A stretch of DNA of 64,000 bases from Candidatus Peregrinibacteria bacterium (GTDB lineage Bacteria; Patescibacteriota; Gracilibacteria; Peribacterales; Peribacteraceae). A model generated the notes under the pieces. The model saw only the letters and a program-made list of their open reading frames with translations, searched no databases and was not told the origin of the DNA. Made by a program: the position numbers and the translations under genes. This document shows, piece by piece, positions 5,989-46,277 of this stretch. The stretch spans positions 136,766 through 200,765 of the forward strand of contig JBDRKJ010000002.1 in NCBI GenBank assembly GCA_043814035.1, in the 5' to 3' direction. Position 1 is the stretch's first letter. Every line of letters starts with the position of its first letter.

Positions 5989-7770
5989 ATGTGGACCCCA
6001 CTTTCCCTCCTCCGGCGCTTCGGAGCGGCCCTCAAGTCCTTCATCTGGCGGCATCCCATCTGGTCTGTCGTACTCGGAATTTTTGGTCTGCTCTTCGCTC
6101 TGCTCCTGTGGTACATCTTCTCGCCCGTACAGCCTGAGATGATCACCGATGTGGTGCGTCGCGGTGATCTTGTGCAAAAGGTGGAGGCTGTAGGCACTAT
6201 TACTTCTGACCGTGATGTGAATCTGAAATTCCCGATTACAGGAATTATGTCCGCCATATCGGTAAAGGAAGGCGACAAGGTAATCGCAGGTCAGGAACTG
6301 GCCAAGCTCCGCAATGAATCATTCGCGGCTGATCTTGCCGCAGCGTCGGCACAGTGGCGGCAGGCACAGGCAAGCTACCAGGAACTTGTCGAGGGAACGC
6401 GTCCCGAAGACATCGTCATCGCCGAAGCTGAAGTGGCCAATAAACGTGCAGCCCTCGAAGCCGCACGAGCAGATCTCGTGAGCGCCGAAGACAAATTGCG
6501 CACCTCGGAACAGAAACTTCAGACTATTCGCTCAGAAGCCGACACGAATCTCGCCGGGTACATTACGACGTCTTCGAGTGCGTGTACGCAGCAGATTTCG
6601 CTCACCAAAACGTCCCTCAGTACACTCGATGACATCTTCATCAATTCGATCATAACCGACATGGCCAAACAGTACCGCACTACGTCGTACAATATTTTTC
6701 GGTCTGACTGGACCTTGGCCCAGAGCGCTCTCGATGCGTTCTTGTGTGCGGGCGGTTTCATGACCTATGACGCTGCTCTCGAAACGATGCAACGTGCGAC
6801 GGTGATCATCACACAAGCAACGAATGTTCTTCAAGAAGCCTATGCGCTCATCGCCGACCTGCCGATTACCACGGCCTACGATACGGCGACACGCGAAGCC
6901 AACAAAACATCCATTGGCACCGAAAAGGCGAGCGTGCAGGAAGCAGCGAGTGCCATCAATACCGCAATGAGTGACCTGCGTGATGCGTCTGCCAGCTACG
7001 ACACGAGCGTTGCGACAGAAGAGAACACGTACGCTGCTGCCAAAGCAGCCAAGCAGACTGCAGAATCCGCAATTATTACGTACGAAACCTCCCTGCGCAC
7101 ACAGGAGGCACAACTTGCACTCAAGAAAGCTGGTCCACGTGAGACGCAGCTCGCTGCCTCACGGGCAAATATGAACGCCGTCGGAGCAAATGTGGCCAAG
7201 GCTCGCGCAAAGCTCGAAGACTCCATCATCCGCGCACCTGCAGATGGCATTATTACGAAAGTAGATTTTAAGGAAGGAGAATTCACAGGGGACCCCGATA
7301 ATGCAAACCACTCGATCACCATGCTCGGTGCTTCGCCCTTCCGTGTCGAGATGTTCCTCTCAGAGGTCGATATTCCCAAGGTACAGCTTTCGCAGAGCGG
7401 CTCCATTGAGCTTGATGCGTTCCCGGGAGTGAACTACGCGCTCAAGGTCACGTCAATCGAGCCGGGGCCCACCAAGATCGATGGCGTCTCGAAGTATCGC
7501 GTGAGCTTAAACTTCGTATACCCGCACGATGAATTCAAGATCGGCATGACGGGCGACGCTGAAATCATCACAGGAGAGCGCAAAGATGTATTGCTCGCTC
7601 CGGTACGGTCCGTCATTCAGAAAAACGGCGAAGGCAAGGTTATCCGTATCCTCGAAAACGGAAAAGTTGTCGACAAACCCGTGACGACCGGCATGGAATC
7701 CGATACCGATGTCGAAGTTGTCACTGGACTTACCGAAGAGGAGACTGTGATCGTCCTCATTAAGCAGTAA
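5989..7770 (+). CDS. Efflux membrane-fusion (MacA/HlyD-family) adaptor with long coiled coil
   Basis: N-terminal TM, VKEGDKVIAGQELAKL, IIRAPADGIITKV, GMTGDAEII. Confidence 0.92.
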   Translation: MWTPLSLLRRFGAALKSFIWRHPIWSVVLGIFGLLFALLLWYIFSPVQPEMITDVVRRGDLVQKVEAVGTITSDRDVNLKFPITGIMSAISVKEGDKVIAGQELAKLRNESFAADLAAASAQWRQAQASYQELVEGTRPEDIVIAEAEVANKRAALEAARADLVSAEDKLRTSEQKLQTIRSEADTNLAGYITTSSSACTQQISLTKTSLSTLDDIFINSIITDMAKQYRTTSYNIFRSDWTLAQSALDAFLCAGGFMTYDAALETMQRATVIITQATNVLQEAYALIADLPITTAYDTATREANKTSIGTEKASVQEAASAINTAMSDLRDASASYDTSVATEENTYAAAKAAKQTAESAIITYETSLRTQEAQLALKKAGPRETQLAASRANMNAVGANVAKARAKLEDSIIRAPADGIITKVDFKEGEFTGDPDNANHSITMLGASPFRVEMFLSEVDIPKVQLSQSGSIELDAFPGVNYALKVTSIEPGPTKIDGVSKYRVSLNFVYPHDEFKIGMTGDAEIITGERKDVLLAPVRSVIQKNGEGKVIRILENGKVVDKPVTTGMESDTDVEVVTGLTEEETVIVLIKQ

Positions 7771-7772
7771 TC

Positions 7773-8513
7773 ATGCCAAAAAAAGAATCTTCGCCTCTGA
7801 TCGAAGCCAAGAACCTCTACAAATCGTACTTCAACGAGACGATCGAAACTCCTGTGCTTTACGATATCAACTTACAAATCAATGCAGGAGAATTTGTGGC
7901 CATCATGGGCCCATCAGGGTCAGGAAAATCCACGCTCATGCATATCTTGGGCTTTTTGGATGTTCCGACAAAAGGTCACTATCACTTTAAGGGCGAATCC
8001 ACAGAGCAGAAGGAGGAGGATGAACTGGCGCGCATTCGTTCTTCGAGTGTAAGTTTCGTGTTCCAGTCTTTCAACCTACTGCCACGAACGAGTGTTATCG
8101 ATAATGTTTCACTCCCACTCCTCTATCACAGCGCCACTCGCCCAGTCGATCGCCTTGCTCGTGCCATGAAGGCCATTAAGGCTGTCGGTCTCACGGACCG
8201 CGCCACGTATCTGAGTAATCAGCTCTCAGGCGGACAGCAGCAGCGTGTGGCTATTGCGCGTGCCCTCGTCACGGAGCCAGAGATCATTTTTGCCGACGAG
8301 CCTACCGGAAACCTAGACTCCGCATCGGGCAAACAGGTGATGGAAATCCTGCAGAAACTCCATCAAGCAGGGCACACAATCATTCTCGTCACACACGAAA
8401 AAACGACAGCAGAGCACGCCGAGCGCATCATCCAAATTATGGATGGCCGCATCGTTGCAGATAACAAAGCGTTCACGCGTCGCATTGCCAATCAGGTAAA
8501 AGATTTCAAGTAA
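7773..8513 (+). CDS. ABC transporter ATP-binding protein (MacB/LolD family)
   Basis: [33 protein letters not shown]. Confidence 0.96.
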
Positions 8514-8523
8514 TTCCTTGCCA

Positions 8524-9762
8524 ATGCAACTTCGCGATACCGTCACCATCGCGCTCAAAGCAGTGAAGGGCAATAGTGCCCGATCTCTTCTCACTATGCT
8601 CGGCATCATCATTGGTGTCGGTGCTGTGGTGCTTATGACGAGCGTGGGAGAGAGCATGCAAAGCGTCATCTTAGGGCAGATTAGTGCACTCGGGCCCAAG
8701 ACCATTGCCATGTGGCCGGGCGAGAACGGCCCGGAGCAGGGAGCGGCCACGCTCAATCCCGATTTCGATAGCTTCACCCTCAATGACGTAGATGCCCTGA
8801 AAAAACTTCAGACTATTTCGAATGTTGCCCCCATCATTTTTGTACAGGGTAAAACCACCTATGGTACCGAGCAGACCGATACGCGCGTCGTAGGCACTAC
8901 GCCGGACTACTACTTGAACCAAGTTGTCGATGCTGCCGAGGGACGCCTGCATGACGAGCAGGATGAATTGGAGGGACGTGCAGTTGCTGTACTCGGACCC
9001 GATACCGCCAAGGATCTCTTCTTCAATCAGAGCCCGCTCGGCAAGCGCATCGAGATTGGCAATAAGAAGTACACGGTCATCGGTGTGCTGGAGTCGGTAG
9101 GATCGCAATTTTTTCAGAACATGGATGAGCGGATCATCATCCCCTTCGAGACAGCCCACATCGTTTCGCAGCGCTCCTACGTCGACATGGTCACGGCAAT
9201 GTCGACAGGCGACACGGCAGACGCTGTTGCCGATATTCAGTTCTTGCTCCGCCGCCGTCACAACATCATTCCTCCAGAGACGGGGCCAGAGACGGACAAT
9301 GACGACTTTCTCGTCCGCACCGCAGAACAAGCACAGGAAATTTTGGGCACAGTATCTGTAAGCCTGACCGCCTTTATCACAATGATCGCAACAATTTCAC
9401 TCGTTGTCGGCGGCATCGGCATTATGAACATAATGCTTGTTGCCGTGACGGAACGCACCCGTGAGATCGGCCTGCGCAAAGCCCTTGGAGCGCGCCGAAA
9501 TGACATCCTGCTGCAATTCCTCATCGAGGCCATTGTCCTCACATTGCTCGGGGGCCTGATTGGCATGCTGCTCGGCGTAGGCTTAAATGCCATCATTGTT
9601 GGCATCGCACGAAAATTCCTCGACCGATACATTTTTGCTTTGAATCCCATCGCCATGTTCGCCGCCTTGATCATGGCAGGGGGCACCGGGCTCGTCTTTG
9701 GTATTTATCCTGCCCGCAAAGCCGCAGACCTCAATCCAATCGAAGCTCTTCGCTACGAATAA
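8524..9762 (+). CDS. ABC transporter permease (MacB/FtsX family)
   Basis: [49 protein letters not shown]. Confidence 0.95.
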
Positions 9763-10979
9763 TGCGTATACAAGACACTCTCCGATCGGCCCTCGAAGGA
9801 CTCACCCGCAACATCTCGCGATCGCTGCTCACAACGCTCGGCATCATCATTGGCGTGGGTTCTGTAGTACTGATGGTTTCAGTCGGTGCGACCTTTCAGA
9901 ACTTTATCTTAGACCAGTTGAGCGATTTTAGTGCAAGCACATTTGAGATTCATTCCAAAGGACTGCAGGAATTCGGCAAAGAAACCAACACGCTCACAGA
10001 GGGCGACGCAGAGGCGCTTGCCAAGCTCTCGACGGTCAAAAATGTTGTTCCCGTGATCTTCGTCGCGCAGAAAGTAAAATTCGGAACGCAGGAAGCGAGC
10101 CCTATGATTCTAGGATCAACCAAAGACATCTTCGAAAACTGGTCTATGAAGGTTACCAATGGACGCCTGCTCAGTGATGGAGACCTGAAAGGGGGCCAAA
10201 GCGTCGTCGTTTTGGGTGGGAAAACTGCTGAAGACCTCTTCGGAAACTCGGATCCACTGGGTAAACGTATTAGTGTTGGGGAGCGTAAATTCACTGTCGT
10301 CGGTGTTCTCAAAACTCTCGGAGGAGCAATGGGGGCACAGATGGATACACCTATCTACGTCCCATTCACTGTCGCACAAACCCTGACGAACAAGGGGCGC
10401 TACATCGACTACATTTCTCTTCAGGCTGTAGGCAACATCGATCTCGCGACCGAGGATATTAAGTCGCTGCTTCGTCAGCGCCACAACATCGATAATCCGA
10501 ATGATGATCCTGATAAGGATGACTTCGTTTCCCGTTCATTTGCACAGGCAACGGAAATCATCGGCACAGTCACACTTTCGATCACCATCTTCCTCGGCCT
10601 CATCGCCGGCATTTCACTTGTTGTCGGGGGCATCGGCATTATGAACATCATGCTGGTCTCTGTTTCAGAACGAACAAAGGAGATCGGTCTACGTAAAGCA
10701 GTGGGTGCCCGTCGAAGTGACATTTTATTGCAGTTCCTCATCGAGGCTGTTGCCCTTACGCTGCTTGGAGGACTCATTGGTATTGTTGGAGGCGGCCTCC
10801 TCGGGTTCCTCATGACAAGGCTCGCTGCAAAGTTCCTCGGCGACCTCTCATTTGCTCTCACAATCAGCTCTATTCTGCTCTCTATCGGTATGGCAGTGGG
10901 AACCGGATTGATCTTCGGTCTCTACCCTGCAAGACGCGCCGCCAAGTTACACCCCATTGAAGCAATGCGCTTCGAGTAG
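9762..10979 (+). CDS. ABC transporter permease (MacB/FtsX family), paralog
   Basis: Same motifs: VSERTKEIGLRKAVGA, PIEAMRFE. Confidence 0.95.
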   Translation: MRIQDTLRSALEGLTRNISRSLLTTLGIIIGVGSVVLMVSVGATFQNFILDQLSDFSASTFEIHSKGLQEFGKETNTLTEGDAEALAKLSTVKNVVPVIFVAQKVKFGTQEASPMILGSTKDIFENWSMKVTNGRLLSDGDLKGGQSVVVLGGKTAEDLFGNSDPLGKRISVGERKFTVVGVLKTLGGAMGAQMDTPIYVPFTVAQTLTNKGRYIDYISLQAVGNIDLATEDIKSLLRQRHNIDNPNDDPDKDDFVSRSFAQATEIIGTVTLSITIFLGLIAGISLVVGGIGIMNIMLVSVSERTKEIGLRKAVGARRSDILLQFLIEAVALTLLGGLIGIVGGGLLGFLMTRLAAKFLGDLSFALTISSILLSIGMAVGTGLIFGLYPARRAAKLHPIEAMRFE

Positions 10980-23992: not shown

Positions 23993-25461
23993 ATGCGAAC
24001 GCGTTTTGCGCCTTCCCCCACCGGCTTTCTGCACGTCGGAGGCCTGCGTACTGCCCTCTTCGCTTACCTGATGGCCAAGAAAACGGGAGGCCGTTTCTTG
24101 CTGCGCATCGAAGACACCGATCAGCAACGCAGTGTCGAAGGAGCGGTTGAGAACATTCTGCGCACACTGCATTGGGCAGGGCTCGATCCCGATGAAGGCC
24201 TGATGATAAGCAAGGGAATAGTGAAACAAGAAGGAGCAACAGGGCCCTACATTCAATCGGAGCGACTGGAACTGTATCAAAAATATGCAAAGCAGCTCCT
24301 GAAAGACGGCCATGCCTACGCTTGCTTCTGCTCACCCGAACGCCTCACAAAGATGCGCGAAGGCCAGATGGCACGCAAGCAGGCACCTATGTACGACCGA
24401 CATTGCGTTCATCTACCGAAAAAAGAAGTGGAGGAGCGTCTTGCACGAACAGAGCCTCATGTCATCCGGCTTCTGGTACCACACGAACACACCTTCACTT
24501 ACACAGACGAAATTCGCGGAGAAGTGAAATTCCAGGGCCATACCGTCGATGATCAGGTTCTCCTCAAGAGCGATGGCTTCCCCACGTACCATCTCGCACA
24601 CGTCGTAGATGATCATCTGATGGATATTAACCTCGTCATTCGCGGGGAGGAGTGGCTCAGCTCTACTCCCAAACATTTGCTCCTCTTCGAACGATTGGGA
24701 TGGACACCTCCCAAATATGCACACGTCCCGCTTCTACTCAATAAAGACCGGACCAAGTTAAGCAAGCGCCAACAGGATGTAGCAGCCGAGGACTACATTC
24801 AAAAAGGCTACCGCCCGAGGCACTAATCAATTTTCTTGCGTTGCTTGGCTGGAACCCTGGCTCGGAGCAGGAAATGTTTTCACTAGAGGAACTCACCGAG
24901 GCTTTTTCGTTGGAACGCGTACAGAAAGCCGGCGCCATTTTCGACCTCACCAAGCTCGATTGGCTACAGGGCCAGTGGATCCGCAAGTTGCCACTCGCGG
25001 AATTCGCCGATCGTCTACAGACGCTCACCGCCGAACGATTCCCAGAGGCTATAAACGATCCGCACTTCAAAGAGCGGGCAGCTCTCATCCACGAACGCGT
25101 TACTTTTCTGAAAGATGGACCGGATATGCTCGCCTTCTTCTATGAGGAACCAAAGGTTTCGGTTGAACTCCTCGCCAATGCCAAACAGAAAGTGACAGAA
25201 GATCTCCTCCCAAAGATTTTTAAAACACTGAAGGAAACACTCAAGAAGATTTCTGAAGATGCGTGGACGGTCGATACTCTTAAAGAGAAATTGCTCGCCA
25301 GCGCTAAAGCCGAAGAGCTCTCTCAGGGCCAACTCCTCTGGCCGCTCCGCGCTGCCCTCACCGGTCTCCCCTACAGTCCCGGAGCCTTTGAAGTAGCCGT
25401 GGCGCTTGGCAAAGACACCACATTGACACGCCTAGAAGCCATCACGGCATCCCTCAACTGA
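23993..25461 (+). CDS. gltX: Glutamate--tRNA ligase, split by a 1-nt frameshift near 24815
   Basis: RFAPSPTGFLHVG, RIEDTD and KLSKR in one frame; EALINFLALLGWNPG continues in the -1 frame. Confidence 0.93.
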
Positions 25462-27137: not shown

Positions 27138-27995
27138 CTAGAAAGGAAGATCTTCCACTTTCACCTCTGAGGCATACTGAATCTCAGGGATATCGGCTGA
27201 TGCCGGGGCCGCAGCCGTTGGAGATTCCTGTGATCGAGGGGACGCGCGTCGCTGAGCACTAGACTCAACGGCCTCGAGGGCCGAAGCGTTACGCACACCA
27301 AGCAGGGCACATTGATCGGCAATGATCTCGGTAGTGGTGCGCTTCTGACCTTGCTTCGTCTCCCAACCGCGAGTCTGCACGCGGCCCGAAACGAAGACGC
27401 GACTGCCTTTGCGTACAACCTTGCCAACCTCTTCTGCCAGCGCACCCCAAATCACAACATTGTGAAACTCTGCACGCTCTTTGGCTTCGCCGGTCGAACG
27501 CTCTTTCCAGCGATCATTGGTCGCAACACCCAGTGTAAGCACCTGCTTGCCACCGGTCGTGGTACGGATCTCGGGATCGCGGGTGACATTACCAACGACA
27601 TCTGCACGATTGACCGCACTGAGTGTGAGTTTGGCTGCTTCGGGAGTGGGAGTCTGCCCATCTTTAGGATCAAGGAGGATCATATCGAGTGCAACGATCT
27701 TCGTTTTGCTGCGCTTCTCGCCGGAGCTCTGATCTTCCCAAGAGTCCGTCTGCAGTCGCCCGCCGATGAAAATCTGCGAGCCCGGACGCACGTACTGACC
27801 AGCAAAATCGGCCATGGAGCCCCAAAGGGTAACGGTATGGAATGCACGTCCCTGCAAGGTTTCTCCCTGCTCAGACTGAAATGAGTACGGGACAACAAGA
27901 TTCAAATCCACGACACTCGTTCCACTGGGGGTCTGACGCACTTCGGCGGGTTGGGTTTGATAGCCGATCATATGCACACGATTGAGAGAAAACAT
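27138..27995 (-). CDS. ssb: Single-stranded DNA-binding protein with two tandem OB folds
   Basis: SLNRVHMIG...GRLQTDSW, then AVNRADVVGNVTRDPE...GRVQTRGW; acidic tail EDLPF. Confidence 0.93.
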   Translation of the reverse strand: MFSLNRVHMIGYQTQPAEVRQTPSGTSVVDLNLVVPYSFQSEQGETLQGRAFHTVTLWGSMADFAGQYVRPGSQIFIGGRLQTDSWEDQSSGEKRSKTKIVALDMILLDPKDGQTPTPEAAKLTLSAVNRADVVGNVTRDPEIRTTTGGKQVLTLGVATNDRWKERSTGEAKERAEFHNVVIWGALAEEVGKVVRKGSRVFVSGRVQTRGWETKQGQKRTTTEIIADQCALLGVRNASALEAVESSAQRRASPRSQESPTAAAPASADIPEIQYASEVKVEDLPF

Positions 27996-28190
27996 GTCAC
28001 GGAGAGGAATGAAAATAGAGGAGGCCACACAGAGCCGTGGAAGGGCACGGTACACCGGCAACCATCCCATGCAAATGAATGGCCTTGAACGCTCATGGCA
28101 ATATGCCCTGGTTACAGGACCGATGTGACCATGCGCGCAATGTCTTTCTGTGGCGCTAAAGCAGGAAAAAACGGTACGATAGCTCCCACG

Positions 28191-31100
28191 ATGGATGCAC
28201 GCTTAAAATCTGCCGTCCCGGTCGTGGTAGGCCTGCTCATGGCAGCCTCTCTTGGCGTACTTCCTGTGCGTGCCCTGCAGATTGATGAGCCAACCGACTT
28301 CGAAACTGTACAGGGGAACGTGAGCAAGGTTCGCGGGGACCTCGAAAGCGCCCAATGTGGTGGCTGGGATTTCAACGACCACGTCGATAACAAAATTCCC
28401 TATGTCAGTGGTGCTCCCGGCCGCAGGAGCACATTCCTCGGTCCAGACGGCAAGTTAATGTCAGAGGTGGCAGCGGCTGGTCTCGGCAAGCGCGACGAGG
28501 AGACTGGCGCCCTCGAAGATGGCTTCGTTTTCCCCGACTCCAGTCGCACAAGCGGTTGGTCAACCGTCTGTAACGTCCATGAGTGTGAAAACAGTTACCC
28601 CTACATCCGCGAGTGCCCAGATGATCCGCCATGCAGAAACCCCGACGAATGTCAGCAAATGTGCCACGATCTGAATGCTTGGGTACGGCGTCATCAAGAG
28701 TGCACTGCAGAATGGACTCAGTGGGATGACGCAGGTCCGTTCCAAGTATTCGATTTTCTCGGAGACACAAGCCCGTGCCGGAACCTTGATAATGGCGACT
28801 GGTGCCATCCGGGTGATGCGGGATGGGTGAGTGTGGATGCACGTTTGTGGAATTTGCACGGTGGCAATCAGGGAATAGCAGTCTGGTGCGATGTCGACGA
28901 GCTACTGTACTGCTGCTCAAACGCGCTGATGGTCGACCGCGACAGAGACCCAGAGGGCAATTGCATTGCCTGTCACGGAGACGGCCTCGAAGACCGCAAT
29001 AATCCGGGGTTCGACTTCAACGGCGAGCGCCCTCAGGATCTTGAATTCACCGGATGCCGCGACGGCAAGAATGCTCCCAACGGGCGGGAGTACGTTTCGA
29101 TCTATCGACGCCATATGGTGACATATACCCGGGATCCCGTAGCCGTAGTGCCCCGCGATGATACATCGCGCTTCGATGTGCCAGTGGACTGCTACTGCCG
29201 TTATGAAGAGTTCGATCCCAAAGCTCGTCGCACTAATGCGCCTGACTATCGATGTATCATCAATCTGGAGGACGAAGGAAAGCGATTCAATCGCATGAAA
29301 GAAACTCAGCTTGGCAAAGGAGAGTACGGCCAAAACTCCGACCTCCCAGATCCTGCCTATGAACACACTGCGGTTCGCGATACGCGCAAAAACCTGTGGG
29401 TGAATGATTTCAGTGATACCTTCTCACTCTTAAATAGTGAAAAGTTTAAGGAATCACCGAAAGATAATCTCTTTCCGCTGTTGCAGCTCGACAACACCGA
29501 CATCATGCCGACGGCGCAGCTCGATATACAGCGCCCCTATTCGAGTGGCAGCCTTATTCGCTCCACCGATGACACCGTTCACACTGAGGACCCAGGACGC
29601 CGCACGATCATCGAGTGGTGGCAGGAGCAGGAAACACAAGCACATAAGCTCTTTAGCTCCCCTCTGCTCCGCCTGATACTCCCAACCCCCGCATCAGTTG
29701 GATTGGACCTCTCTGATCCATTCCTGACCCCACAGGGCAGTAGCTCCAGTAATGGGAAAAAGATCAATCAGCAGATTATTGACATTCAGATTCACGCCAC
29801 TCCCGAAGATCTGCTTTCAGAGGTCAGCGCTTACCTCGAAAATGGCCTCCTCCTTCACGTACGAGAGGAACCAGTGCCATTGGTTGTTCCATTAGCATCG
29901 CCTGTGGAACTTCGCGCACTCGCACAAGGATGGAAGCGCTGGGGCGAAGAGCACGAAGACGGAAAATCGAAAGCAGAACAGGCCGCACAGAAACTCGAGG
30001 ACTACGCAGAGCGTATTGATCAGGTGCGGGCACTGCGTGGCGAACTGGCGCAGTACATCGGTCGCCTGCTCACGTACCAGGGAACGATGATGCGTGCCAT
30101 CGGTGAATGGCTCACGACCAACATGCAGACGTGGGAACGGTATTCCACCGTCCATCATCAGGGCCTGGATCTAAAACCGCTCTGGCAAGAAACCCAGCAG
30201 AAGTACCGTGCCTTTCATGATCGCACGAACATGCCATGGTGCCGTAATGATCGCTTCACCACTCCCATCTACTCATTCCTGGATGATTGGATGCCCGGTC
30301 CACCAGAGCCACGCGATTTGATGCTCAACATTGATGAGCAGCCTGCCAACAACCTCGCGCCCCACAGCCTCCCTCGCCTGTCGATCGAAACACTTCCTGA
30401 TCTCGTTTACGACTTCACGGTCCTGCGCGTTTCGACGGGAACTGTAATTCTACCAGTCATCACGCCCATCCAAATCCGGCTCCAGCAGTCGCTCTTTGAT
30501 CCTCCAGCCTCACGTGAGGGTCTCGATCTGGTCTCTGAGCGTCTGGATAAAATAATCGAATTACCCGATCTCCCACCTGTTCCTTCAATCTATGAAGAAG
30601 TCTTAGGAGGGCTCTTCCCGAGCGAAGTGCAGCACCTCTCTTCCCCGTCAAAGGTAAAGACGACCATTGCCGATGTGCCGCCCGAAGTTGAAGAAGTAAT
30701 GAGGCGAATGTTATCGATGATCATTGGTATGGATGAGACGTACAAGAAATTCTGGGAGAGCATTACGGATTTCCCTGAAAGGAACTTCTACGGTATGTGG
30801 TCTTGTGAGCGTCTCGATGAAATGCCGTGCGTGCATGTGGAGATGGACCTGCTCGAGCGCTTCACGCGCATTGGCGCACGACCTGCTGTGCAACTTCGAG
30901 AGGATTTCTCATCGTATGGACCATTCCGAACAGATGTGATTCTTGATTCCAAGGTTGCAGGCGTACTTCGCAGCATGGACTTAGACCCCCCAACAGCTGT
31001 GCCAGCGTGTCCTCGCGAAGACTGGGCCTGCCAGATCTACAACGTCGAGAAAACCTACGCCCGCGAAGGGTGGCGTGTGGAAGGCATAAAGGAAGGCATT

Positions 31101-31280
31101 GGGCAACAAGACCTGGCGAATTTGCGTAACAGGCTCTGGAAGACAACGATCCCCATAGGGAGCAGCAGCTCCTTCCCCTATATCGTGACACCGGACGACA
31201 TGCTGCCTTCATTCAATGTCCCCACCCCCATCATTCTGCCCACAACCCGATTCGATCAGAGTAGTTCCTCCTCCCGATGA
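28191..31280 (+). CDS. Large secreted cysteine-rich hypothetical protein (about 1030 aa)
   Basis: Signal peptide MDARLKSAVPVVVGLLMAASLGVLPVRA, Cys-rich N-terminal half, central helical region. The ORF is open from 28095. Confidence 0.8.
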   Translation: MDARLKSAVPVVVGLLMAASLGVLPVRALQIDEPTDFETVQGNVSKVRGDLESAQCGGWDFNDHVDNKIPYVSGAPGRRSTFLGPDGKLMSEVAAAGLGKRDEETGALEDGFVFPDSSRTSGWSTVCNVHECENSYPYIRECPDDPPCRNPDECQQMCHDLNAWVRRHQECTAEWTQWDDAGPFQVFDFLGDTSPCRNLDNGDWCHPGDAGWVSVDARLWNLHGGNQGIAVWCDVDELLYCCSNALMVDRDRDPEGNCIACHGDGLEDRNNPGFDFNGERPQDLEFTGCRDGKNAPNGREYVSIYRRHMVTYTRDPVAVVPRDDTSRFDVPVDCYCRYEEFDPKARRTNAPDYRCIINLEDEGKRFNRMKETQLGKGEYGQNSDLPDPAYEHTAVRDTRKNLWVNDFSDTFSLLNSEKFKESPKDNLFPLLQLDNTDIMPTAQLDIQRPYSSGSLIRSTDDTVHTEDPGRRTIIEWWQEQETQAHKLFSSPLLRLILPTPASVGLDLSDPFLTPQGSSSSNGKKINQQIIDIQIHATPEDLLSEVSAYLENGLLLHVREEPVPLVVPLASPVELRALAQGWKRWGEEHEDGKSKAEQAAQKLEDYAERIDQVRALRGELAQYIGRLLTYQGTMMRAIGEWLTTNMQTWERYSTVHHQGLDLKPLWQETQQKYRAFHDRTNMPWCRNDRFTTPIYSFLDDWMPGPPEPRDLMLNIDEQPANNLAPHSLPRLSIETLPDLVYDFTVLRVSTGTVILPVITPIQIRLQQSLFDPPASREGLDLVSERLDKIIELPDLPPVPSIYEEVLGGLFPSEVQHLSSPSKVKTTIADVPPEVEEVMRRMLSMIIGMDETYKKFWESITDFPERNFYGMWSCERLDEMPCVHVEMDLLERFTRIGARPAVQLREDFSSYGPFRTDVILDSKVAGVLRSMDLDPPTAVPACPREDWACQIYNVEKTYAREGWRVEGIKEGIGQQDLANLRNRLWKTTIPIGSSSSFPYIVTPDDMLPSFNVPTPIILPTTRFDQSSSSSR

Positions 31281-32089
31281 AGCACCACACTTCTCTTCTC
31301 TGGCTCGCTGTTCTCGCATTCATCATCATGCCACTGCAAGGTCATGCGCAGGATACTGACACATGCCAGTCACTCATGGTGCGACAGCTCTCGCAGGAGC
31401 AACGCCTGTACCGCAGCGTGCTCTTCGGACACAAAAAAGCTCAGGATGCCGCGCTCAACGAAGTGTACTTCGACAATGAGGGAATCCCATGGATCAAGGA
31501 AAAGGAGAATGTATGGCGTTCTGTTTCGCCGGGCAAAGAGGATGAGGAACGCAGCGATGACGAAATGGATGGCAAGGATGAGCTAAAGCCGCGCAAAGGT
31601 ATCTTCGAAACGCGCAAAGTGATGACATCGGACTTGGTGCCCTACCTCACACAGGCCTACCGCTCACTCAAATGCCGTTCAACCATCGTCTGCAAGGTTG
31701 TGGAAAATTCTCTTGAGTTGGAAAGTACGGAACCGCAGGAACTAACCATAGTGGTACCGGGGTGCATCGAGGACAAACGACAATCAACCCCCAGCTGCCA
31801 CCTCGCGGCTACCGAAGGGAGCAAAGTGGAAGAGGGAGAACTGCTCACCTACTGTCGATTGGTAAGAGATGATTTGGTCTCGCGTGAGAAAGATCTACTC
31901 AAGCAAGCCACTGAGTACGATGCGGCGTATCGCTCTCTTTTGCAGCTCTCAGGACAAATCGATGCCTTTCTACAGGAGTTCCGCTGGCCTCTTGCGAATT
32001 CGCTTCGCAAAGCCGCGCAACTCGTTGGATCCCTCTACCGCATTCCCTGTTTCATCGGCAGCTGTGACGAAAGTCCCCCCGCCAATTAA
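31277..32089 (+). CDS. Secreted cysteine-containing hypothetical protein
   Basis: Signal peptide ending GHA-Q; ATGA overlap with the upstream gene. Confidence 0.8.
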   Translation: MKHHTSLLWLAVLAFIIMPLQGHAQDTDTCQSLMVRQLSQEQRLYRSVLFGHKKAQDAALNEVYFDNEGIPWIKEKENVWRSVSPGKEDEERSDDEMDGKDELKPRKGIFETRKVMTSDLVPYLTQAYRSLKCRSTIVCKVVENSLELESTEPQELTIVVPGCIEDKRQSTPSCHLAATEGSKVEEGELLTYCRLVRDDLVSREKDLLKQATEYDAAYRSLLQLSGQIDAFLQEFRWPLANSLRKAAQLVGSLYRIPCFIGSCDESPPAN

Positions 32090-32094
32090 GAATC

Positions 32095-32892
32095 ATGTTC
32101 TCTCTCCGTAAGCGCACCATTGGCTCGATGATCGTCCTCTTGCTGATGGCCCTCAGCGTTGTCGTTGTTGTAATGAAAGACCCCGAAAAATTTACTGCCA
32201 CCAGTGTTGATCTGCTCATTAAGCAAGAAGAGGAAAATTCCATCCTCACCCCCTGCTCCCGCTTTGCAAAGAATTACGCATACGCACAACTGCCTTTCAG
32301 AGACGGCAGTTTCTCGCAATGGCCAACGGAATACCATCGCATTGTCGGTGAGGTTGTCGACGAACACATGCAATCCTTTTCGCGCCCCCCGGACTGCAGT
32401 GCCACAACAGGAGGTGGCGTGCTTCCTGGTGGAGCGAAGCTCAGCGCACTCGCGAAAAGCCTCCCCAGCTGGAAGGAATCTTCTGTCAGCCAATGGGAAG
32501 CCAGTTCCGTGCTCCTTGAATTCTTGCGGGCCTACGAATGCGCTTTAGAAGAGAGGCTTTACTTCCTGCACCCGGATGCACTCCTCCAGCTTGAGATGGC
32601 AATGCAAGAGGAAGGGGATGAATCCGATATTTATCTCTCTCTCCTCACCGCCGAGGTTTCGGAAGAAGATCAGACAATCGCCACGGAATTGGCAACGGCA
32701 CGGTCCTCCCTCAACCGGACACTCTCTGTTCTCGCTGGCCTTAGTCGTCTGCTCCCGCTCCATTCAGAGCTTCAGTGTATTGAGCGAGCATCTCTCGATA
32801 TCCGCAATGCACTCGCGCTGGGGGCAGAGGCCAGCGCCTGCCTGCCACGTATCTGGAACGCCAAGGATCCTCTTCGCGACTTACCACAGTGA
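32095..32892 (+). CDS. Membrane-anchored or secreted hypothetical protein
   Basis: N-terminal hydrophobic helix; several Cys; 5 nt after the previous stop. Confidence 0.8.
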   Translation: MFSLRKRTIGSMIVLLLMALSVVVVVMKDPEKFTATSVDLLIKQEEENSILTPCSRFAKNYAYAQLPFRDGSFSQWPTEYHRIVGEVVDEHMQSFSRPPDCSATTGGGVLPGGAKLSALAKSLPSWKESSVSQWEASSVLLEFLRAYECALEERLYFLHPDALLQLEMAMQEEGDESDIYLSLLTAEVSEEDQTIATELATARSSLNRTLSVLAGLSRLLPLHSELQCIERASLDIRNALALGAEASACLPRIWNAKDPLRDLPQ

Positions 32893-35384
32893 AATACTCC
32901 TCCGTCATTTTCGGCATTGTTGGCTCACTGCTCATTGTGACGCATGCCCACGCAGAACAAGGGCTTGGTGGCCTGCAACTCTACGAAAAAATGCATGCGC
33001 TCACAGCGCAGGAAATGACTTTGGAAGGGGTTAACGATTCCATTATTAGCTATGTCGTTCAAATGGTGTCTCAGGAAAACATTTTTCTGAAAGATGAAAC
33101 CGCTGCAGAGATTCAGTCAATTGTAAAAGCGGCGTTTGATTCACGGCTCGGTGAGTTCTGCCAACTGTACAACAACACGTTCGATGGCTGCCCGCAGGCG
33201 TATCAGATGTTTCGCGACTGGGGACGCGACATCCTCGAAACGCTCACGCTCTCTACAGACCTTCTCCATATAGCAACAGGATACGAAACAGGTGTAAGCG
33301 GGCGTATGGGCGAAATTTTCACTGTCGCAGAACGCACGCTCACGATTCGCAATCTTTGGCGCAGCCAGGATGATGCCCTGCTTACACCTGAGGTATTCCC
33401 GCTCGTACGTGCAGTGCCCCGACCTGACAGTGTTACGGATGGCATGCTCGACGATCTCGGCGCCGAACTCGAGAGGGCTGGCTCGACTGCCGTGTGGCGT
33501 TACCGTTACGGGATCACTCCGTTCTCTGATTACTGTTACAACGTCAGGGACGCCTCGGAGCTGTATCAGGCAATCCGCGAGCGGTACTGCAAAGTTGAAG
33601 ATAAATTACGTGCTCTACGAGATGCCCTCCCGGCATCAGTATTGGATTACGACCCTCCACTGCAGCGCGGAGAAATCGTAATTTTCCCACTGCGCAGACT
33701 CGACACGCCGGCACATGCTGTTGTCTGGATGATGGCCGAGCACGTCGACGGAACAATCAAGCGTGATGTGGGGTTGGGATGGGATCTAACTCTGTCTTCT
33801 CCCTCCGTTGGGATAATGGGTGGTGACCCCTGTGATTCTGGAAAGTTCTCTGAGGCCTACTGCACTGTTGTCGATCGATTCGGGATCCTCCCAGGCGGCC
33901 GCTACGAAGATCCACCGCAGGAACCGGGCGAGGACGATGGGATTTGCCATTTGGCGTTTGCCCGAGACGGCTACATGTGCCGCCCGCTCCGTCACGATCG
34001 CTGTAACGCAGAAATCGACGACAAAGACCCGCGTGCGATCGTACTCACGGAGTGTAAACCCACGCAGGCGAAGCAGCCGATCGCCCTCACCGAATCCGGC
34101 CCTGATATCTGCCGCACGGGCTGGTGGCGTATTCCAAGCAAGGAGCTCATGAGTCCGCAGGGCAAGCTTGGTTGCAGTCTCTGCACGGTGGATATTGAAT
34201 GCAAAGACAATTGCCCCAACGGAAACTCAGCAACAACAGAGGAGAAGGATGAGAACGGTGTTATCCATATATGTGTCCAGAACAGCGCTCCTCGTATCAT
34301 GCTTGGATCCAGCCTGCTACACGAACTCGTCCATGCCCAGCAATATTGTAACCTTAAACCAGGAACCAAAACTTCCGACACGGCCGAGCGCTGCTGCGCC
34401 ACCGAAGCAGAGGCCTATAGGGTTTCCTGCCGTGTGTATGCAGAGGATGGAATCTTGGATGCCATTGGCTTCTCACTCGAGGAATGCATAGGTGGCCTGA
34501 GCAATATCAGCTGCAGAAAATACGGTGAGAAGGCATGTTCAAGCCTTGAAACTGAAGAGATCCTAGAAAAACTCTTGGATGCATTACGAAAGGCAGACCG
34601 TGAATCCGGGGGAAGTCTTCCTTCGTGCGAAGAGGTGATAGGAAAAACAAATGATCAGGAAGGTATTTCTACAATGATCCAGGCTAGAGGGGCAGAGGCA
34701 CTGGCACGCATCGATAGCCGTATTCCTGCAATGATCGAAGCCCTGAACGGTGCCTGTACGCCCGGTTGCCCGACAAAGTATGAGAACACCATCGGCAACA
34801 ACCTCTGCTACATCGGCCAGTGTGTAGAACAATCCATCGAACAATCGCGCGTCATTCCCGGCCGCATGGGGTTGGTGGTGGAAGACGAGGCGTTCCCGTG
34901 GGATTCCTGCGCGGTAGAAAATACACAAGCCGCGGGACTCATCGCACTGCCTGCTATTTCTCCGCCCCTCATGCCTGCCTACAACCCACGTTTGCTGATC
35001 GAATCTCTCGATCGCGCGCTGTGCCAGATCAATGGCCTTCCTGCTGCCACCCCACCTATCCTCTGTCAGTTCAACTACGAGCGTAGACTGAATATTCCCA
35101 CCGATAGCTATGTGACAACTTCATTCAGCTTTGCAGGACAAATCGAGGAAAATCTAGAGCCCACCGAATCACTGCAACGCATGACCCAGAGTATCGCAAC
35201 GCGCATTGGTACATCGCTTCTTACGCGCTATCTCTCGTGGGCCGGGCGCGCGCTGTCTGACACTCTGCGAGCAGGTAACGAGTTGATGGGTGCGATGGCA
35301 AAAACCCAGTTCCCACAGCAAACGTGTCCGCGGAACGCAGCGGAAACTCCTGATTTCTGTAACGTTCCGTACGTTCCCGAATGA
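32889..35384 (+). CDS. Secreted cysteine-rich protein with HExxH zinc-metallopeptidase motif
   Basis: Signal peptide ending AHA-E; LLHELVHAQQYC...CCATEAEAY; roughly 30 Cys; GTGA overlap. Confidence 0.8.
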   Translation: MKYSSVIFGIVGSLLIVTHAHAEQGLGGLQLYEKMHALTAQEMTLEGVNDSIISYVVQMVSQENIFLKDETAAEIQSIVKAAFDSRLGEFCQLYNNTFDGCPQAYQMFRDWGRDILETLTLSTDLLHIATGYETGVSGRMGEIFTVAERTLTIRNLWRSQDDALLTPEVFPLVRAVPRPDSVTDGMLDDLGAELERAGSTAVWRYRYGITPFSDYCYNVRDASELYQAIRERYCKVEDKLRALRDALPASVLDYDPPLQRGEIVIFPLRRLDTPAHAVVWMMAEHVDGTIKRDVGLGWDLTLSSPSVGIMGGDPCDSGKFSEAYCTVVDRFGILPGGRYEDPPQEPGEDDGICHLAFARDGYMCRPLRHDRCNAEIDDKDPRAIVLTECKPTQAKQPIALTESGPDICRTGWWRIPSKELMSPQGKLGCSLCTVDIECKDNCPNGNSATTEEKDENGVIHICVQNSAPRIMLGSSLLHELVHAQQYCNLKPGTKTSDTAERCCATEAEAYRVSCRVYAEDGILDAIGFSLEECIGGLSNISCRKYGEKACSSLETEEILEKLLDALRKADRESGGSLPSCEEVIGKTNDQEGISTMIQARGAEALARIDSRIPAMIEALNGACTPGCPTKYENTIGNNLCYIGQCVEQSIEQSRVIPGRMGLVVEDEAFPWDSCAVENTQAAGLIALPAISPPLMPAYNPRLLIESLDRALCQINGLPAATPPILCQFNYERRLNIPTDSYVTTSFSFAGQIEENLEPTESLQRMTQSIATRIGTSLLTRYLSWAGRALSDTLRAGNELMGAMAKTQFPQQTCPRNAAETPDFCNVPYVPE

Positions 35385-36940
35385 GAACTGTTCCTCTGTT
35401 GCTCACCGGCATATTGATCTTCTCCATTGCTTCTCCGGCAATGGCGGCAGGTGATCAGTATGCAGATATCGCTCCCGTTTCTCCGTACATAGAGCGTGTG
35501 GTGCGTCGCGTGAGGGCCGGGCTCGATAATGCCGGAGGCGGAGACGCAACAGCAGATAAACTGCTCAAACTCTTCTGGCTCGATCAGATCACTGGGATGA
35601 TTCTGTTGTTGGTCGATACAGATCTGCGCATTGTGGAGCAGGAGCGCGACCTGCGAGAAAATACACCCTGTCTGAGAATCGACACTCTCATTCTTGAGGG
35701 ATGGATGGAGCGAGCAAGAATACGAAAGAATGACGCCATTGAAGCGGGGCGCGTGGGTGAAGCTGCGCGCCTCATTTCGATGCAACGATATCTGAATAAC
35801 CGCTACAAGGCTCTTCTTCTGGGAGCAAGAGACCCCACGTACGTCGATAAAGAAGAAGGATCATTGTACGGATTTGATGCTCCACCCTACTGGTGCTGCC
35901 CCGGCAAAGAGGAAGAGGATGACACGAGAAATATTGAGTGCCGACAGATAGGGGAAGGCACGGAGTATTCTGATTGCATAAACACGCAGGGGCTCGCATT
36001 CAAGAGGCAGTACGCGTGCGTAAATGCTGGCTGCACTGCATCGGGCGGAGAGGGAGAAGATGAAGGGGAACCCTGTCCATTCAGTACAGATTATCTTCCG
36101 CCAACCGGAGCGGGATATGGTTGTGACCTTTCTGTTCTCGAAAGCCGTGATGGACCAGAAGGCATTCGAAAAGAAATCGAAGGGCTGCGAAAGCTCATTC
36201 AGGACCGTGATACAGCCATTGAAGATATTGGCACCGCAAAGGATACCATCGTGCAACTGGAACAACGTTTGGGAGGAGGAACGATGGATCTCTCGAATTT
36301 TGGTATGGGAGCAAGCAACAAGCGTAGCCACGAAGTGAAAAGTGGCTGCCTTGCGGAGGATGAGCAGCTCCCCGCAGGTGTCACCTTCTGGGAACGTCGT
36401 GGACCGTTTGCATTCTCATCGAATGAGACGTCTCTCATGCCCAAACTCTCAGCGCTCTGGGATGGATGGGGCCAGCAACGCCTGCCTCCTACTTACATCC
36501 GCGACTCCAATGAATTGCCAGACGGCCCCGAGAAAGAGGCGGCCCAGGCAATGGAGAATGTGATGCTCTTCTGGCTGCTCGGTGCTCGCTACGACGCACA
36601 GTTGTATCTGCAAGGATTCAGCCTGCAACAAGCGAAGAAAGAGAGCGCACAGATCGCAAAGACTATCGATGCTCCACTGCGCGTACTCAACACGCTCACG
36701 CCGCTTCGTACAGAAGTGCGCAGACTTGCGTCTTCGGTACAGAGCTCGGATGTTGGCCTACGAAAATTTGTGCGTGACTACGCCTCCTTCTTGCGCACCT
36801 CCTGCATTTTCCGCCCATGCAATAAGCAATTAGATCGCATATTGAAAATCATTTTCAAGGATGAGTGTTTTCCGTACGCCAGAGGAGCCCCCCTTGAATC
36901 AGAGGTCGCAAGACAGTGCAAAAATGCAGCAGGACTCTAA
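35381..36940 (+). CDS. Secreted cysteine-rich hypothetical protein
   Basis: Signal peptide ending AMA-A; ATGA overlap; Cys clusters in the middle and at the C-terminus. Confidence 0.8.
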   Translation: MRTVPLLLTGILIFSIASPAMAAGDQYADIAPVSPYIERVVRRVRAGLDNAGGGDATADKLLKLFWLDQITGMILLLVDTDLRIVEQERDLRENTPCLRIDTLILEGWMERARIRKNDAIEAGRVGEAARLISMQRYLNNRYKALLLGARDPTYVDKEEGSLYGFDAPPYWCCPGKEEEDDTRNIECRQIGEGTEYSDCINTQGLAFKRQYACVNAGCTASGGEGEDEGEPCPFSTDYLPPTGAGYGCDLSVLESRDGPEGIRKEIEGLRKLIQDRDTAIEDIGTAKDTIVQLEQRLGGGTMDLSNFGMGASNKRSHEVKSGCLAEDEQLPAGVTFWERRGPFAFSSNETSLMPKLSALWDGWGQQRLPPTYIRDSNELPDGPEKEAAQAMENVMLFWLLGARYDAQLYLQGFSLQQAKKESAQIAKTIDAPLRVLNTLTPLRTEVRRLASSVQSSDVGLRKFVRDYASFLRTSCIFRPCNKQLDRILKIIFKDECFPYARGAPLESEVARQCKNAAGL

Positions 36941-45327: not shown

Positions 45328-45416
45328 GCCGAGGTGGCGAAATTGGCAGACGCGCCAGCCTTAGGAGCTGGTCCCGCGCATGCGGGATGGAGGTTCGAGC
45401 CCTCTCCTCGGCACCA
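45328..45416 (+). tRNA. tRNA-Leu(TAG)
   Basis: Acceptor GCCGAGG/CCTCGGC-ACCA; anticodon arm CCAGC-CTTAGGA-GCTGG; long variable arm; GTTCGAG T-loop. Confidence 0.96.
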
Positions 45417-45443
45417 GATAGGATTTACTAGAACTATTACGCA

Positions 45444-46277
45444 ATGACAGAGCAGCAAGTAACACGAGTGGCAATCGCAACAGAAAAGTTTTTGAAGGTA
45501 CCGCTGGATGATGTGATAAGAAACGTGGGGGATGGTGTAATAGTAAATAGCATTATCCGAACCCTTATTAAGCCGGAGTTGGAAAAAAGGGGGATGGGAA
45601 AATTCAGATCTGCAATTGTGGAAATTTTTCCTAAGGATAAACAACCACCCAAATTTCATTTTGACGACGATTGCATGTTTGCCATGAAGCTAAAGGAGGG
45701 GATATTAAAACCGGAAATGAAAGGCAGGTATCTCTTTCAAGACTGCGGAGTAACTATGGACGACGTTGAAAACATTGCTCTCCCCCAAAACTTCGGAGAC
45801 CCGAATTCCGCAAAGCTTTTTGTTGTGCGCTTTGATCCGTTTTTCTTCCTGTTCTTCGATTTTCGATATAACCGGCAGCGTGTGGAAGCGCAATTGGCAA
45901 GAGCCAAGGAGTACATTACTGCCGCACGGAAACTAGACCCTGAAGCAGAACATGCACCGATATGCGATATGCTATGGGCTGCCATGGAAATGATGGCGCA
46001 GGCCATGATCCTCTCCTTGCCTGACGGAGAAAAAACAAAAACGCACGACAAATTAGAGCACCTTGATGACCTTCGTAAGGGGTTAGTCATCGTGTCTGAT
46101 GATTTTATGCGCGTATTTGCACAAGTAAGTAAAAAGAGACCTGCTGCAAGATATCCGGATGTGAGCAGTGATCCGTCATGGCAAGAAAGAAGTAAGCCGC
46201 TTTCTCCCAAAGAAATTGCTGCGGCACTTGCGAACCTTGAAAAGGAACTTGAGAACAATGTGATGCTCAAAATATAA
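45444..46277 (+). CDS. Putative HEPN-domain protein
   Basis: C-terminal LARAKEYITAA...AMEMMAQA...KTHDKL...KRPAARYP pattern; AT-richer than flanks. Confidence 0.6.
   Translation: MTEQQVTRVAIATEKFLKVPLDDVIRNVGDGVIVNSIIRTLIKPELEKRGMGKFRSAIVEIFPKDKQPPKFHFDDDCMFAMKLKEGILKPEMKGRYLFQDCGVTMDDVENIALPQNFGDPNSAKLFVVRFDPFFFLFFDFRYNRQRVEAQLARAKEYITAARKLDPEAEHAPICDMLWAAMEMMAQAMILSLPDGEKTKTHDKLEHLDDLRKGLVIVSDDFMRVFAQVSKKRPAARYPDVSSDPSWQERSKPLSPKEIAAALANLEKELENNVMLKI

Follow-up and report, generated by a model that had tools for sequence, protein, structure and literature searches.

A conserved five-gene operon of exported proteins in the Peribacteraceae, a candidate surface-attachment module with a possible ancestral tie to type IV pili

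Five genes on the + strand – here named O1 to O5 – lie between ssb and dnaE in a genome of Candidatus Peregrinibacteria (family Peribacteraceae, class Gracilibacteria), that of a tiny, host-dependent relative of Candidatus Peribacter from groundwater, where they form an operon at positions 28191-36940 of a 64,000-nucleotide stretch of DNA (assembly GCA_043814035.1, contig JBDRKJ010000002.1, positions 136,766 to 200,765), referred to here as the window. We put at about one half the probability that this operon is an exported module for surface attachment, specific to its lineage and with an ancestral link to type IV pili; what is shown are the export signals, conservation, orthology and gene neighbourhood. 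The operon would represent, in the Peribacteraceae, a five-gene module of the cell surface, Sec-exported and present in part of the Gracilibacteria (the 'Peregrinibacteria' lineages). Its first gene would encode an exposed surface protein, which in other families is a giant (2,800-5,500 aa), wall-bound (SLH) and adhesin-like protein with FG-GAP and Ig-like domains, and which in the Peribacteraceae would be reduced to a version of about 1,000 aa, with the shared core kept and a cysteine-rich N-terminal domain added. O2-O5 would be four exported partners, with O3 held at the membrane by an anchor or a lipid, and they may be what puts the gene-1 protein together, holds it or docks it on the outside of the cell. 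The module would most likely serve attachment to another cell or surface. Ancestrally it would have worked alongside type IV pili, and the Peribacteraceae module would since have moved away from the pilus genes.

Bacteria of the CPR (Candidate Phyla Radiation) are thought to lead a life attached to other cells, by an apparatus known in outline only, namely pili and 'giant proteins' with no assigned role. The giants are now tied to a pilus gene cluster and to four partner genes, each of them small, conserved and present in one copy, and a vague expectation that large surface proteins may bind hosts gives way to a defined five-protein candidate with testable interactions. The 1,029-aa O1 – for which there is a confident model and no known fold – would be a compact version of the giants, expressible for study, and five new protein families become available for curation.

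O1-O5 are real genes under purifying selection. A preliminary description of this DNA, made from the sequence alone, had reported five co-oriented open reading frames (ORFs) joined by ATGA or GTGA overlaps or a 5-nt gap, and their sizes, junctions and positions were confirmed as claimed: the O1/O2 and O4/O5 junctions are ATGA, O3/O4 is GTGA, and O2/O3 reads TAA-5 nt-ATG. The five genes are co-transcribable and translationally coupled. The O1 frame is open from 28095, and its homologues begin at the point corresponding to 28191, for a product of 1029 aa. Relative to the closest relative, genome G004, the ratio of nonsynonymous to synonymous substitution rates (dN/dS) is 0.085-0.17 for all five genes, with values among their neighbours of 0.295 for murB, 0.025 for ssb and 0.052 for dnaE; the low ratios of the five genes, taken with the same gene order in 20 of 20 related loci, show that they are not chance ORFs.

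The operon is flanked by ssb on the - strand, in a tandem double-OB form, and by dnaE, with ftsW, murG, a cyclophilin gene, gltX and murB further upstream, and the source genome (1.23 Mb) is 98.96% complete. GC content is even across the region (0.53-0.56), synteny is fixed across the family, and the block can be regarded, as previously suggested, as non-mobile and without a compositional shift. Scans of the five proteins against PHROGs and PADLOC gave no match, and an origin as a prophage, defence island or mobile element was rejected on these three grounds. A consensus scan found no sigma-70-like site in the ssb-O1 intergenic region and no + strand promoter-like site in the operon block, and terminator-like sites in the block were no more frequent than in shuffled sequence. 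The search for sequencing runs containing the operon listed no RNA run, and the DNA runs had word shares of at most 0.18.

The operon is vertically inherited within the Peribacteraceae. Queries with single proteins recovered O4 in all 24 other family genomes sampled and O1 and O5 in 23 of the 24 each, and none of the three was recovered in 16 genomes of 16 other families; a profile of O1 was positive in 39 of 40 family genomes. The order O1-O2-O3-O4-O5 is present in every one of 20 fetched family loci, one of which is cut by a contig end after O4 and has O5 on another contig, and the wider block runs murB-ssb-O1..O5-dnaE, with ssb and dnaE each adjoining in 16 of these loci. Identity to the window's proteins in the most distant family members is 21-30% for O1-O5 as against 62-70% for dnaE, the pattern expected of exposed, fast-evolving proteins.

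Within the genus, O4 varies more than any of the other four. Its synonymous divergence (dS) from G004 is 0.44, with 0.11-0.22 for the other four, and it is 65-70% identical to its counterpart in genome G001, with 80-86% for O1, O2, O3 and O5. Part of the protein may have undergone recombination or been under diversifying pressure, which would account for this fast divergence.

Each of the five proteins has a single hydrophobic segment, located at the N-terminus, and the one in O3 is the strongest (Kyte-Doolittle 2.89) and looks like a membrane anchor. The N-terminal signal or anchor that the preliminary description saw in each protein is preserved in homologues from 20 related genomes, and a lipobox-like LAGC/LAAC replaces the plain anchor in 3 of the 20 O3 homologues. 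No C-terminal membrane helix and no sortase signal was found in O1-O5. The sole LPPTG (O5 residue 239) is internal, has no C-terminal hydrophobic tail and is not conserved outside the genus; sortase-anchored surface proteins, recognised by a C-terminal LPxTG followed by a hydrophobic tail, were therefore rejected as a class for O1-O5.

Cysteine counts for O1-O5 are 24, 8, 5, 33 and 14 (2.3, 3.0, 1.9, 4.0 and 2.7%), compared with 1.62% genome-wide in a crude ORF set. The earlier label 'cysteine-rich' stands in so far as all five exceed the genome mean, but the enrichment, although genuine, is moderate, and the genome's extreme cysteine-rich proteins are others. Family alignments hold invariant cysteine columns in every protein (11 in O1, all 8 in O2, 5 in O3, 13 in O4 and 8 in O5), and from these columns the conserved cysteines may form disulfides. 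Partner proteins outside the Peribacteraceae have few cysteines (3-11), which argues that the high content is a Peribacteraceae elaboration added to a few conserved cysteines, for example those of the PCFxxxC at the O2 C-terminus. Separate from the operon, very large and extreme cysteine-rich ORFs (7-11% Cys) are present on other contigs of the genome (C10:80979-87701, C1:42837-51212, C10:41179-46599 and C7:140453-149152), one such ORF having 239 cysteines in 2,240 aa, and these probably correspond to the exported proteins of Peribacter riflensis that have been described as 'very cysteine-rich'.

None of the five proteins matched a Pfam or NCBIfam family over its cut-off. Searches of PDB sequences with O1, O4 and O5 profiles returned only coiled-coil noise (best E 0.012-0.7), and a protein atlas search with O1 and O5 gave no usable match and no stored model. 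The preliminary description had recognised no motif apart from one HExxH, and the searches of Pfam, NCBIfam, PHROGs, PADLOC and PDB sequences, with no match over cut-off, agree with it; the outcome it had named as damaging to its proposal, confident hits to an already described system, did not arise in the sequence searches or in Foldseek searches with O1 and O4. An exhaustive O1 profile search over 1.84 billion representatives found only 258 proteins at E<=1e-3, and for 198 of these E was 1e-30 or lower; the O1 family is thus small and lineage-bound.

The exhaustive search also supplied 150 representatives, of which 83 were aligned, as input for an AlphaFold2 (AF2) model of O1, which has a mean predicted local distance difference test score (pLDDT) of 80.9 and a predicted template modelling score (pTM) of 0.75. 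In this model O1 is predicted to begin with a half that is beta-rich and cysteine-rich; an alpha/beta domain comes next, then four long helices in a bundle (residues 571-679), and the part at the C-terminus is mixed. Foldseek found no match to the model at E<=1e-3 in PDB (best E 1.4) or BFVD. The AF2 model of O4 is moderate (pLDDT 63, pTM 0.37), and Foldseek against PDB returned nothing at E<=1e-3. A paralogous relationship between O2 and O3 was not detectable (hhalign 2.3%). Complex prediction for mature O2 and O3 from paired 20-row alignments gave ipSAE values of 0.00 and 0.01, which speaks neither for nor against an interface.

The module is not confined to the family. Across 300 genomes of the class, the O1 profile found weaker matches (E 1e-10 to 1e-4) in 15 genomes of other families, mostly at model positions 493-648; 12 of these lie inside open frames of 2,842-5,216 aa and the other three in frames interrupted by TGA. 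A segment of the 5,011-aa giant protein of genome G124 aligns with the O1 profile over 247 columns, covering O1 residues 466-762 (hhalign 97.7%, E 2e-12). This giant has a Sec signal peptide and SLH, Big_1/invasin, FG-GAP, DUF11 and TSP3 domains, and its database relatives, from Gracilibacteria or Peregrinibacteria, are named 'S-layer homology domain-containing' or 'FG-GAP-like repeat-containing' proteins and have the same Pfam families. Homology of O1 to SLH-bearing giant surface proteins, together with the conserved signal peptides, bears out the original proposal that the operon's proteins are exported or anchored.

Four tightly packed, co-directional genes follow the giant gene in 12 of 12 standard-code loci. 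The first two encode 180-330 aa in all 12, the third 490-620 aa and the fourth 340-455 aa in 11 of the 12 (genome G219 is shorter there), and all four proteins have an N-terminal signal or anchor. Fusion of O2-O5 into the giant's C-terminal 2,777 aa was tested and is not the case. Because hhalign comparisons with single downstream-gene sequences were weak, alignments were instead compared with alignments across the 12 loci. The O2 family profile then matched the first gene after the giant (96.2%, E 2e-9), O3 the second (95.9%, E 6.4e-9) and O5 the fourth (81.3%, E 1.2e-5); O4 gave its best value in the row with the third (42.4%, E 2.6e-4), in agreement with position and size, and off-diagonal pairs were all at or below 9%. 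This clean diagonal indicates a five-gene module that is orthologous across families, and orthology is well supported by these profile comparisons for the O1 core, O2, O3 and O5. The RIPCFxxxC motif of the O2 C-terminus is conserved across the class. A synteny search in related genomes had been proposed at the outset, and the co-localisation is conserved family-wide in the 20 loci and, as a five-gene module, in at least five further families.

A combined O2 profile, built from 25 sequences, matched 113 of 301 class genomes, and nearly every one of these has a single match. These include 38 of 40 genomes of the family and 74 of 260 outside it, the latter concentrated in families with 26/31, 11/11, 12/13, 3/3 and 3/3 positive genomes; elsewhere in the class the profile is scarce (0/40, 1/40, 0/20, 0/16, 0/12 and 0/12). 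Among 400 genomes of the phylum there were 17 matches besides the window's genome, all in class Gracilibacteria, and 376 genomes of other Patescibacteria classes gave 0 matches.

The link to type IV pili comes from the neighbourhood of the giants. On the strand of the giant gene and directly upstream of it lie pilM/N-like and pilO-like genes, T2SSE (PilB-type), T2SSF (PilC) and one to four prepilin genes, an adjacency that was read in detail in eight genomes of five families (G124, G168, G257, G132, G182, G268, G305 and G285). In G305 and G285 the position profiles for O2-O5 also recognise the four downstream genes, with E values from 1e-43 to 1e-106. At least six further genomes among the matches listed have T2SSF 14-21 kb upstream of O2 on the same strand, as judged from coordinates only, and in five other Peribacteraceae, again among the matches listed, T2SSF is 25-54 kb from O2.

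Several observations weigh against an attachment module tied to pili. No pilus genes are present in the 64-kb window, and the genome's only T2SSF, accompanied by T2SSE and a 957-aa prepilin, is 36 kb downstream of the operon on the same strand. Four of ten upstream stretches fetched showed no pilus genes; two of these are only 3 kb long, and the start estimates may be off. Families with the pilus-giant-O2-O5 order also share other flanks (uvrA and prsW downstream in G124, and same-size ORFs, identified by size only, in G182), so the pilus adjacency may be inherited synteny and not a functional link. Neither O1 nor 19 family homologues contain SLH, FG-GAP or Ig domains by Pfam, and the adhesin nature of O1 is therefore argued from the shared core alone. 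For O4, orthology is weak and is argued from its position and a low similarity; outside the family the O2 profile missed most of the class, with no match in 187 of 260 genomes; and in G227, a genome using genetic code 25 (TGA = sense) with a match to the O1 core, the following genes do not match O2-O5. For O1-O5 we infer complex formation, disulfide bonding, an attachment function and any coupling to pili, and the stoichiometric, disulfide-stabilised complex of the preliminary description stays a hypothesis.

The 957-aa pilus-cluster protein (C2:213075-215948) is an observation in its own right: it has an N-terminus of the prepilin type (GFTAVE) and is a 'modular pilin' of very large size.

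The single HExxH of the operon (HELVH, O4 residue 478) had drawn attention as its only recognisable motif, and a core or catalytic role for it is not supported. Residues 422-519 of O4 score 20.9 bits against Peptidase_M76 (PF09768; cut-off 25.2), O4 scores 15.2 bits against DUF6782 (PF20573; cut-off 27), and the top Foldseek match of the insertion that carries the motif is 6mdw (SPRTN), at a probability of 0.84 and E 0.32. The module is missing in 5 of 20 O4 homologues and the motif is degenerate in five more (L018, L019, L023, L024 and L028), and the module is thereby ruled out as the system's core. Minimal zincins (Peptidase M76/Atp23, SprT/SPRTN and DUF6782) thus resemble the O4 insertion in the HExxH, in the sub-threshold M76 and DUF6782 matches and in the SPRTN-like top fold match, but differ in that the O4 scores are all below cut-offs, the insertion is missing from a quarter of homologues and the motif is often degenerate. 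Classification of O4 as an M76- or SprT-like zincin metallopeptidase was rejected, with scores under the curated cut-offs and an HExxH that is not conserved across orthologues. One O4 homologue without the module (L025:5448-8057, - strand, genome G012) has a C-terminal extension of about 270 aa with Asp/Cys-rich repeats (DGxDNDxDG...C) that is absent in the other 20 sequences.

Features of the operon region, with positions in the window
Feature	Position	Strand	Description
O1	28191..31280	+	1029 aa; signal peptide, Cys-rich beta-rich N-terminal half, alpha/beta domain, long helical bundle, C-terminal mixed domain (predicted); orphan family
O2	31277..32089	+	270 aa; signal peptide, 8 Cys, C-terminal RIPCFxxxC
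O3	32095..32892	+	265 aa; N-terminal segment resembling a membrane anchor, 5 invariant Cys
O4	32889..35384	+	831 aa, GTG start; signal peptide, 13 invariant Cys, conserved C-terminal NTIGNNLCYxGQC region
O5	35381..36940	+	519 aa; signal peptide, 8 invariant Cys
ssb-O1 divergent intergenic region	28071..28190		Presumed operon promoter region, from position alone
O1 core domain (residues 466-762)	29586..30476	+	Common to giant surface proteins of other Gracilibacteria families
Zincin-like insertion in O4	34176..34628	+	Optional, small; about residues 430-580

The same observations admit a bolder form of the attachment reading, in which O2-O5 would be a membrane-tethered base that mounts a variable fibre (O1 or a giant of more than 5,000 aa) beside the type IV pilus machine, the two acting jointly in host-cell capture. 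This pilus-coupled and as yet undescribed surface organelle of the Peregrinibacteria-type CPR lineages is to us a tentative possibility, on the doubtful side; if true, structural work would find its most tractable form in the Peribacter operon, which would also be the minimal one. A purely structural role in the envelope – S-layer attachment, a wall scaffold or a division-related periplasm-like complex, with no cell contact and no tie to pili – is in our view unlikely. It would sit well with a core module that occurs once in a streamlined genome and is inherited vertically, with the cell-wall genes ftsW, murG and murB by the window's operon, with the SLH wall-binding domains of the giant homologues and with an SLH protein encoded after the module in genome G038. 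Envelope housekeeping does not, however, readily account for O1-O5 diverging much faster than neighbouring housekeeping genes, for the adhesion-type domains (FG-GAP, invasin/Big_1) of the giant homologues, or for the absence of the O2 profile from most of the class and from the genomes of other Patescibacteria classes, which also have walls.

It is still less probable, and we would be surprised to find, that the operon encodes five independent secreted proteins (e.g. effectors, or a protease and its targets) grouped for co-regulation only and not for assembly. Gene order and tight coupling by 4-nt overlaps are kept across at least six families despite identity of 20-30% or less, and each gene is single-copy and without paralogue expansion, unlike effector repertoires. 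The zincin-like insertion in O4 of many lineages could be read as the protease of such a set, but it is dispensable; also in keeping with independent action are the own signal peptide on each protein and the fact that no interface was obtained between the proteins.

The preliminary description had also drawn a loose analogy to cysteine-rich mating-pair proteins such as TraN/TraU and had suggested looking for co-occurrence with VirB4-like ATPases. Neither fared well, and a mating-pair or type IV secretion system (T4SS)-like apparatus for exchange of DNA or protein is highly improbable: no T4SS family of Pfam or NCBIfam was matched by any of the five proteins at E<=1, PF03135 (VirB4/TrbE) was not found in this nearly complete genome, other ATPase families not being searched, and the conserved neighbours in other families are type IV pilus genes and not T4SS genes. 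What speaks for such an apparatus is a T4SS_pilin (PF18895) two-helix domain fused to the C-terminus of O5 in one sublineage (1 homologue of the 19 in the alignment and 2 of 9 relatives from databases), where it would tether O5 to the membrane. The genome holds 16 PF18895 matches, but these genes are on other contigs or far from the operon, and none is in it. Tandem-gene clusters of PF18895 outside the window include C7:154542-155962, C8:16987-18097 and C7:59859-60403.

Several other features of the window were recorded. The gltX gene (glutamyl-tRNA synthetase; 23993-25461) is split into ORFs 23993-24826 and 24841-25461, and its conserved motif PEALINFLALLGWNP, close to an A5 run, is out of frame with the upstream part, which points to a frameshift (an assembly error or real) and not to a recoded stop. 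The ssb product (27138-28070, - strand) has 310 aa and two tandem SSB/OB domains, seen as two Pfam SSB stretches, versus the usual one, and this long form (285-360 aa) is conserved in related genomes. A tripartite-efflux-like cluster at 5989-10979 comprises an HlyD-like adaptor, an ABC ATPase and two MacB/FtsX-type permeases; the organism is expected to be single-membraned. At 45328-46277, a tRNA-Leu (anticodon TAG) is directly followed by a gene for a 277-aa HEPN-domain protein.

Among known systems, PilY1 and PilC of Pseudomonas and Neisseria are non-pilin, pilus-associated adhesins encoded with pilin genes. The giant homologues in other families are similar in being large, Sec-exported, non-pilin proteins encoded directly after pilin genes. 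They differ in that no similarity of sequence or fold was found – the PilY1/PilC C-terminal domain in particular had no Pfam match and no Foldseek match at E<=1e-3 in O1 – and in that the four partner genes have no counterpart and the window's operon is not beside pilus genes.

The general theme of exported cysteine-rich or giant surface proteins in this group is already known. Proteomes of Peribacter contain 1.67% cysteine and include large, exported cysteine-rich proteins, possibly for attachment (Anantharaman et al. 2016, PMC4736985), and Ca. Peribacter riflensis has a very cysteine-rich set (mean 7.2% Cys, 1,655 aa) that includes a 14-gene cluster (PMC4736985). The Peribacter riflensis proteins, as far as the portions of that paper covered here go, agree with O1-O5 in organism group, signal peptides, raised cysteine content and proposed attachment, but have 7.2% cysteine versus 1.9-4.0%, and the comparable proteins of the genome studied here are those on other contigs. 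The fibrous surface and host binding of Vampirococcus have been ascribed to giant membrane proteins (Moreira et al. 2021, PMC8080830), and a survey of 'neglected giants' counts Cand. Peregrinibacteria as one of the bacterial phyla with the greatest enrichment in proteins of more than 5,000 aa, with no COG or function assigned (PMC11573180). In the parts of the open-access literature on pili and giants of Peribacteria, Peregrinibacteria and Gracilibacteria that were covered, no description was found of the five-gene module, of its orthology or of its position after pilus genes; not found described, and to that extent new, are the conserved module, the four partner families, the fold-orphan O1 and the linkage to a pilus cluster. 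O1 differs from the giants of Gracilibacteria, Peregrinibacteria and Absconditabacteria, as the covered portions of these sources present them (PMC8080830, PMC11573180), in being 4-5 times shorter, in having no SLH, FG-GAP, Ig-like or TSP3 domains and in its cysteine-rich N-terminal domain, which was not detected in the giants; it has in common with them a core of about 300 aa, Sec export and the four partner genes that follow.

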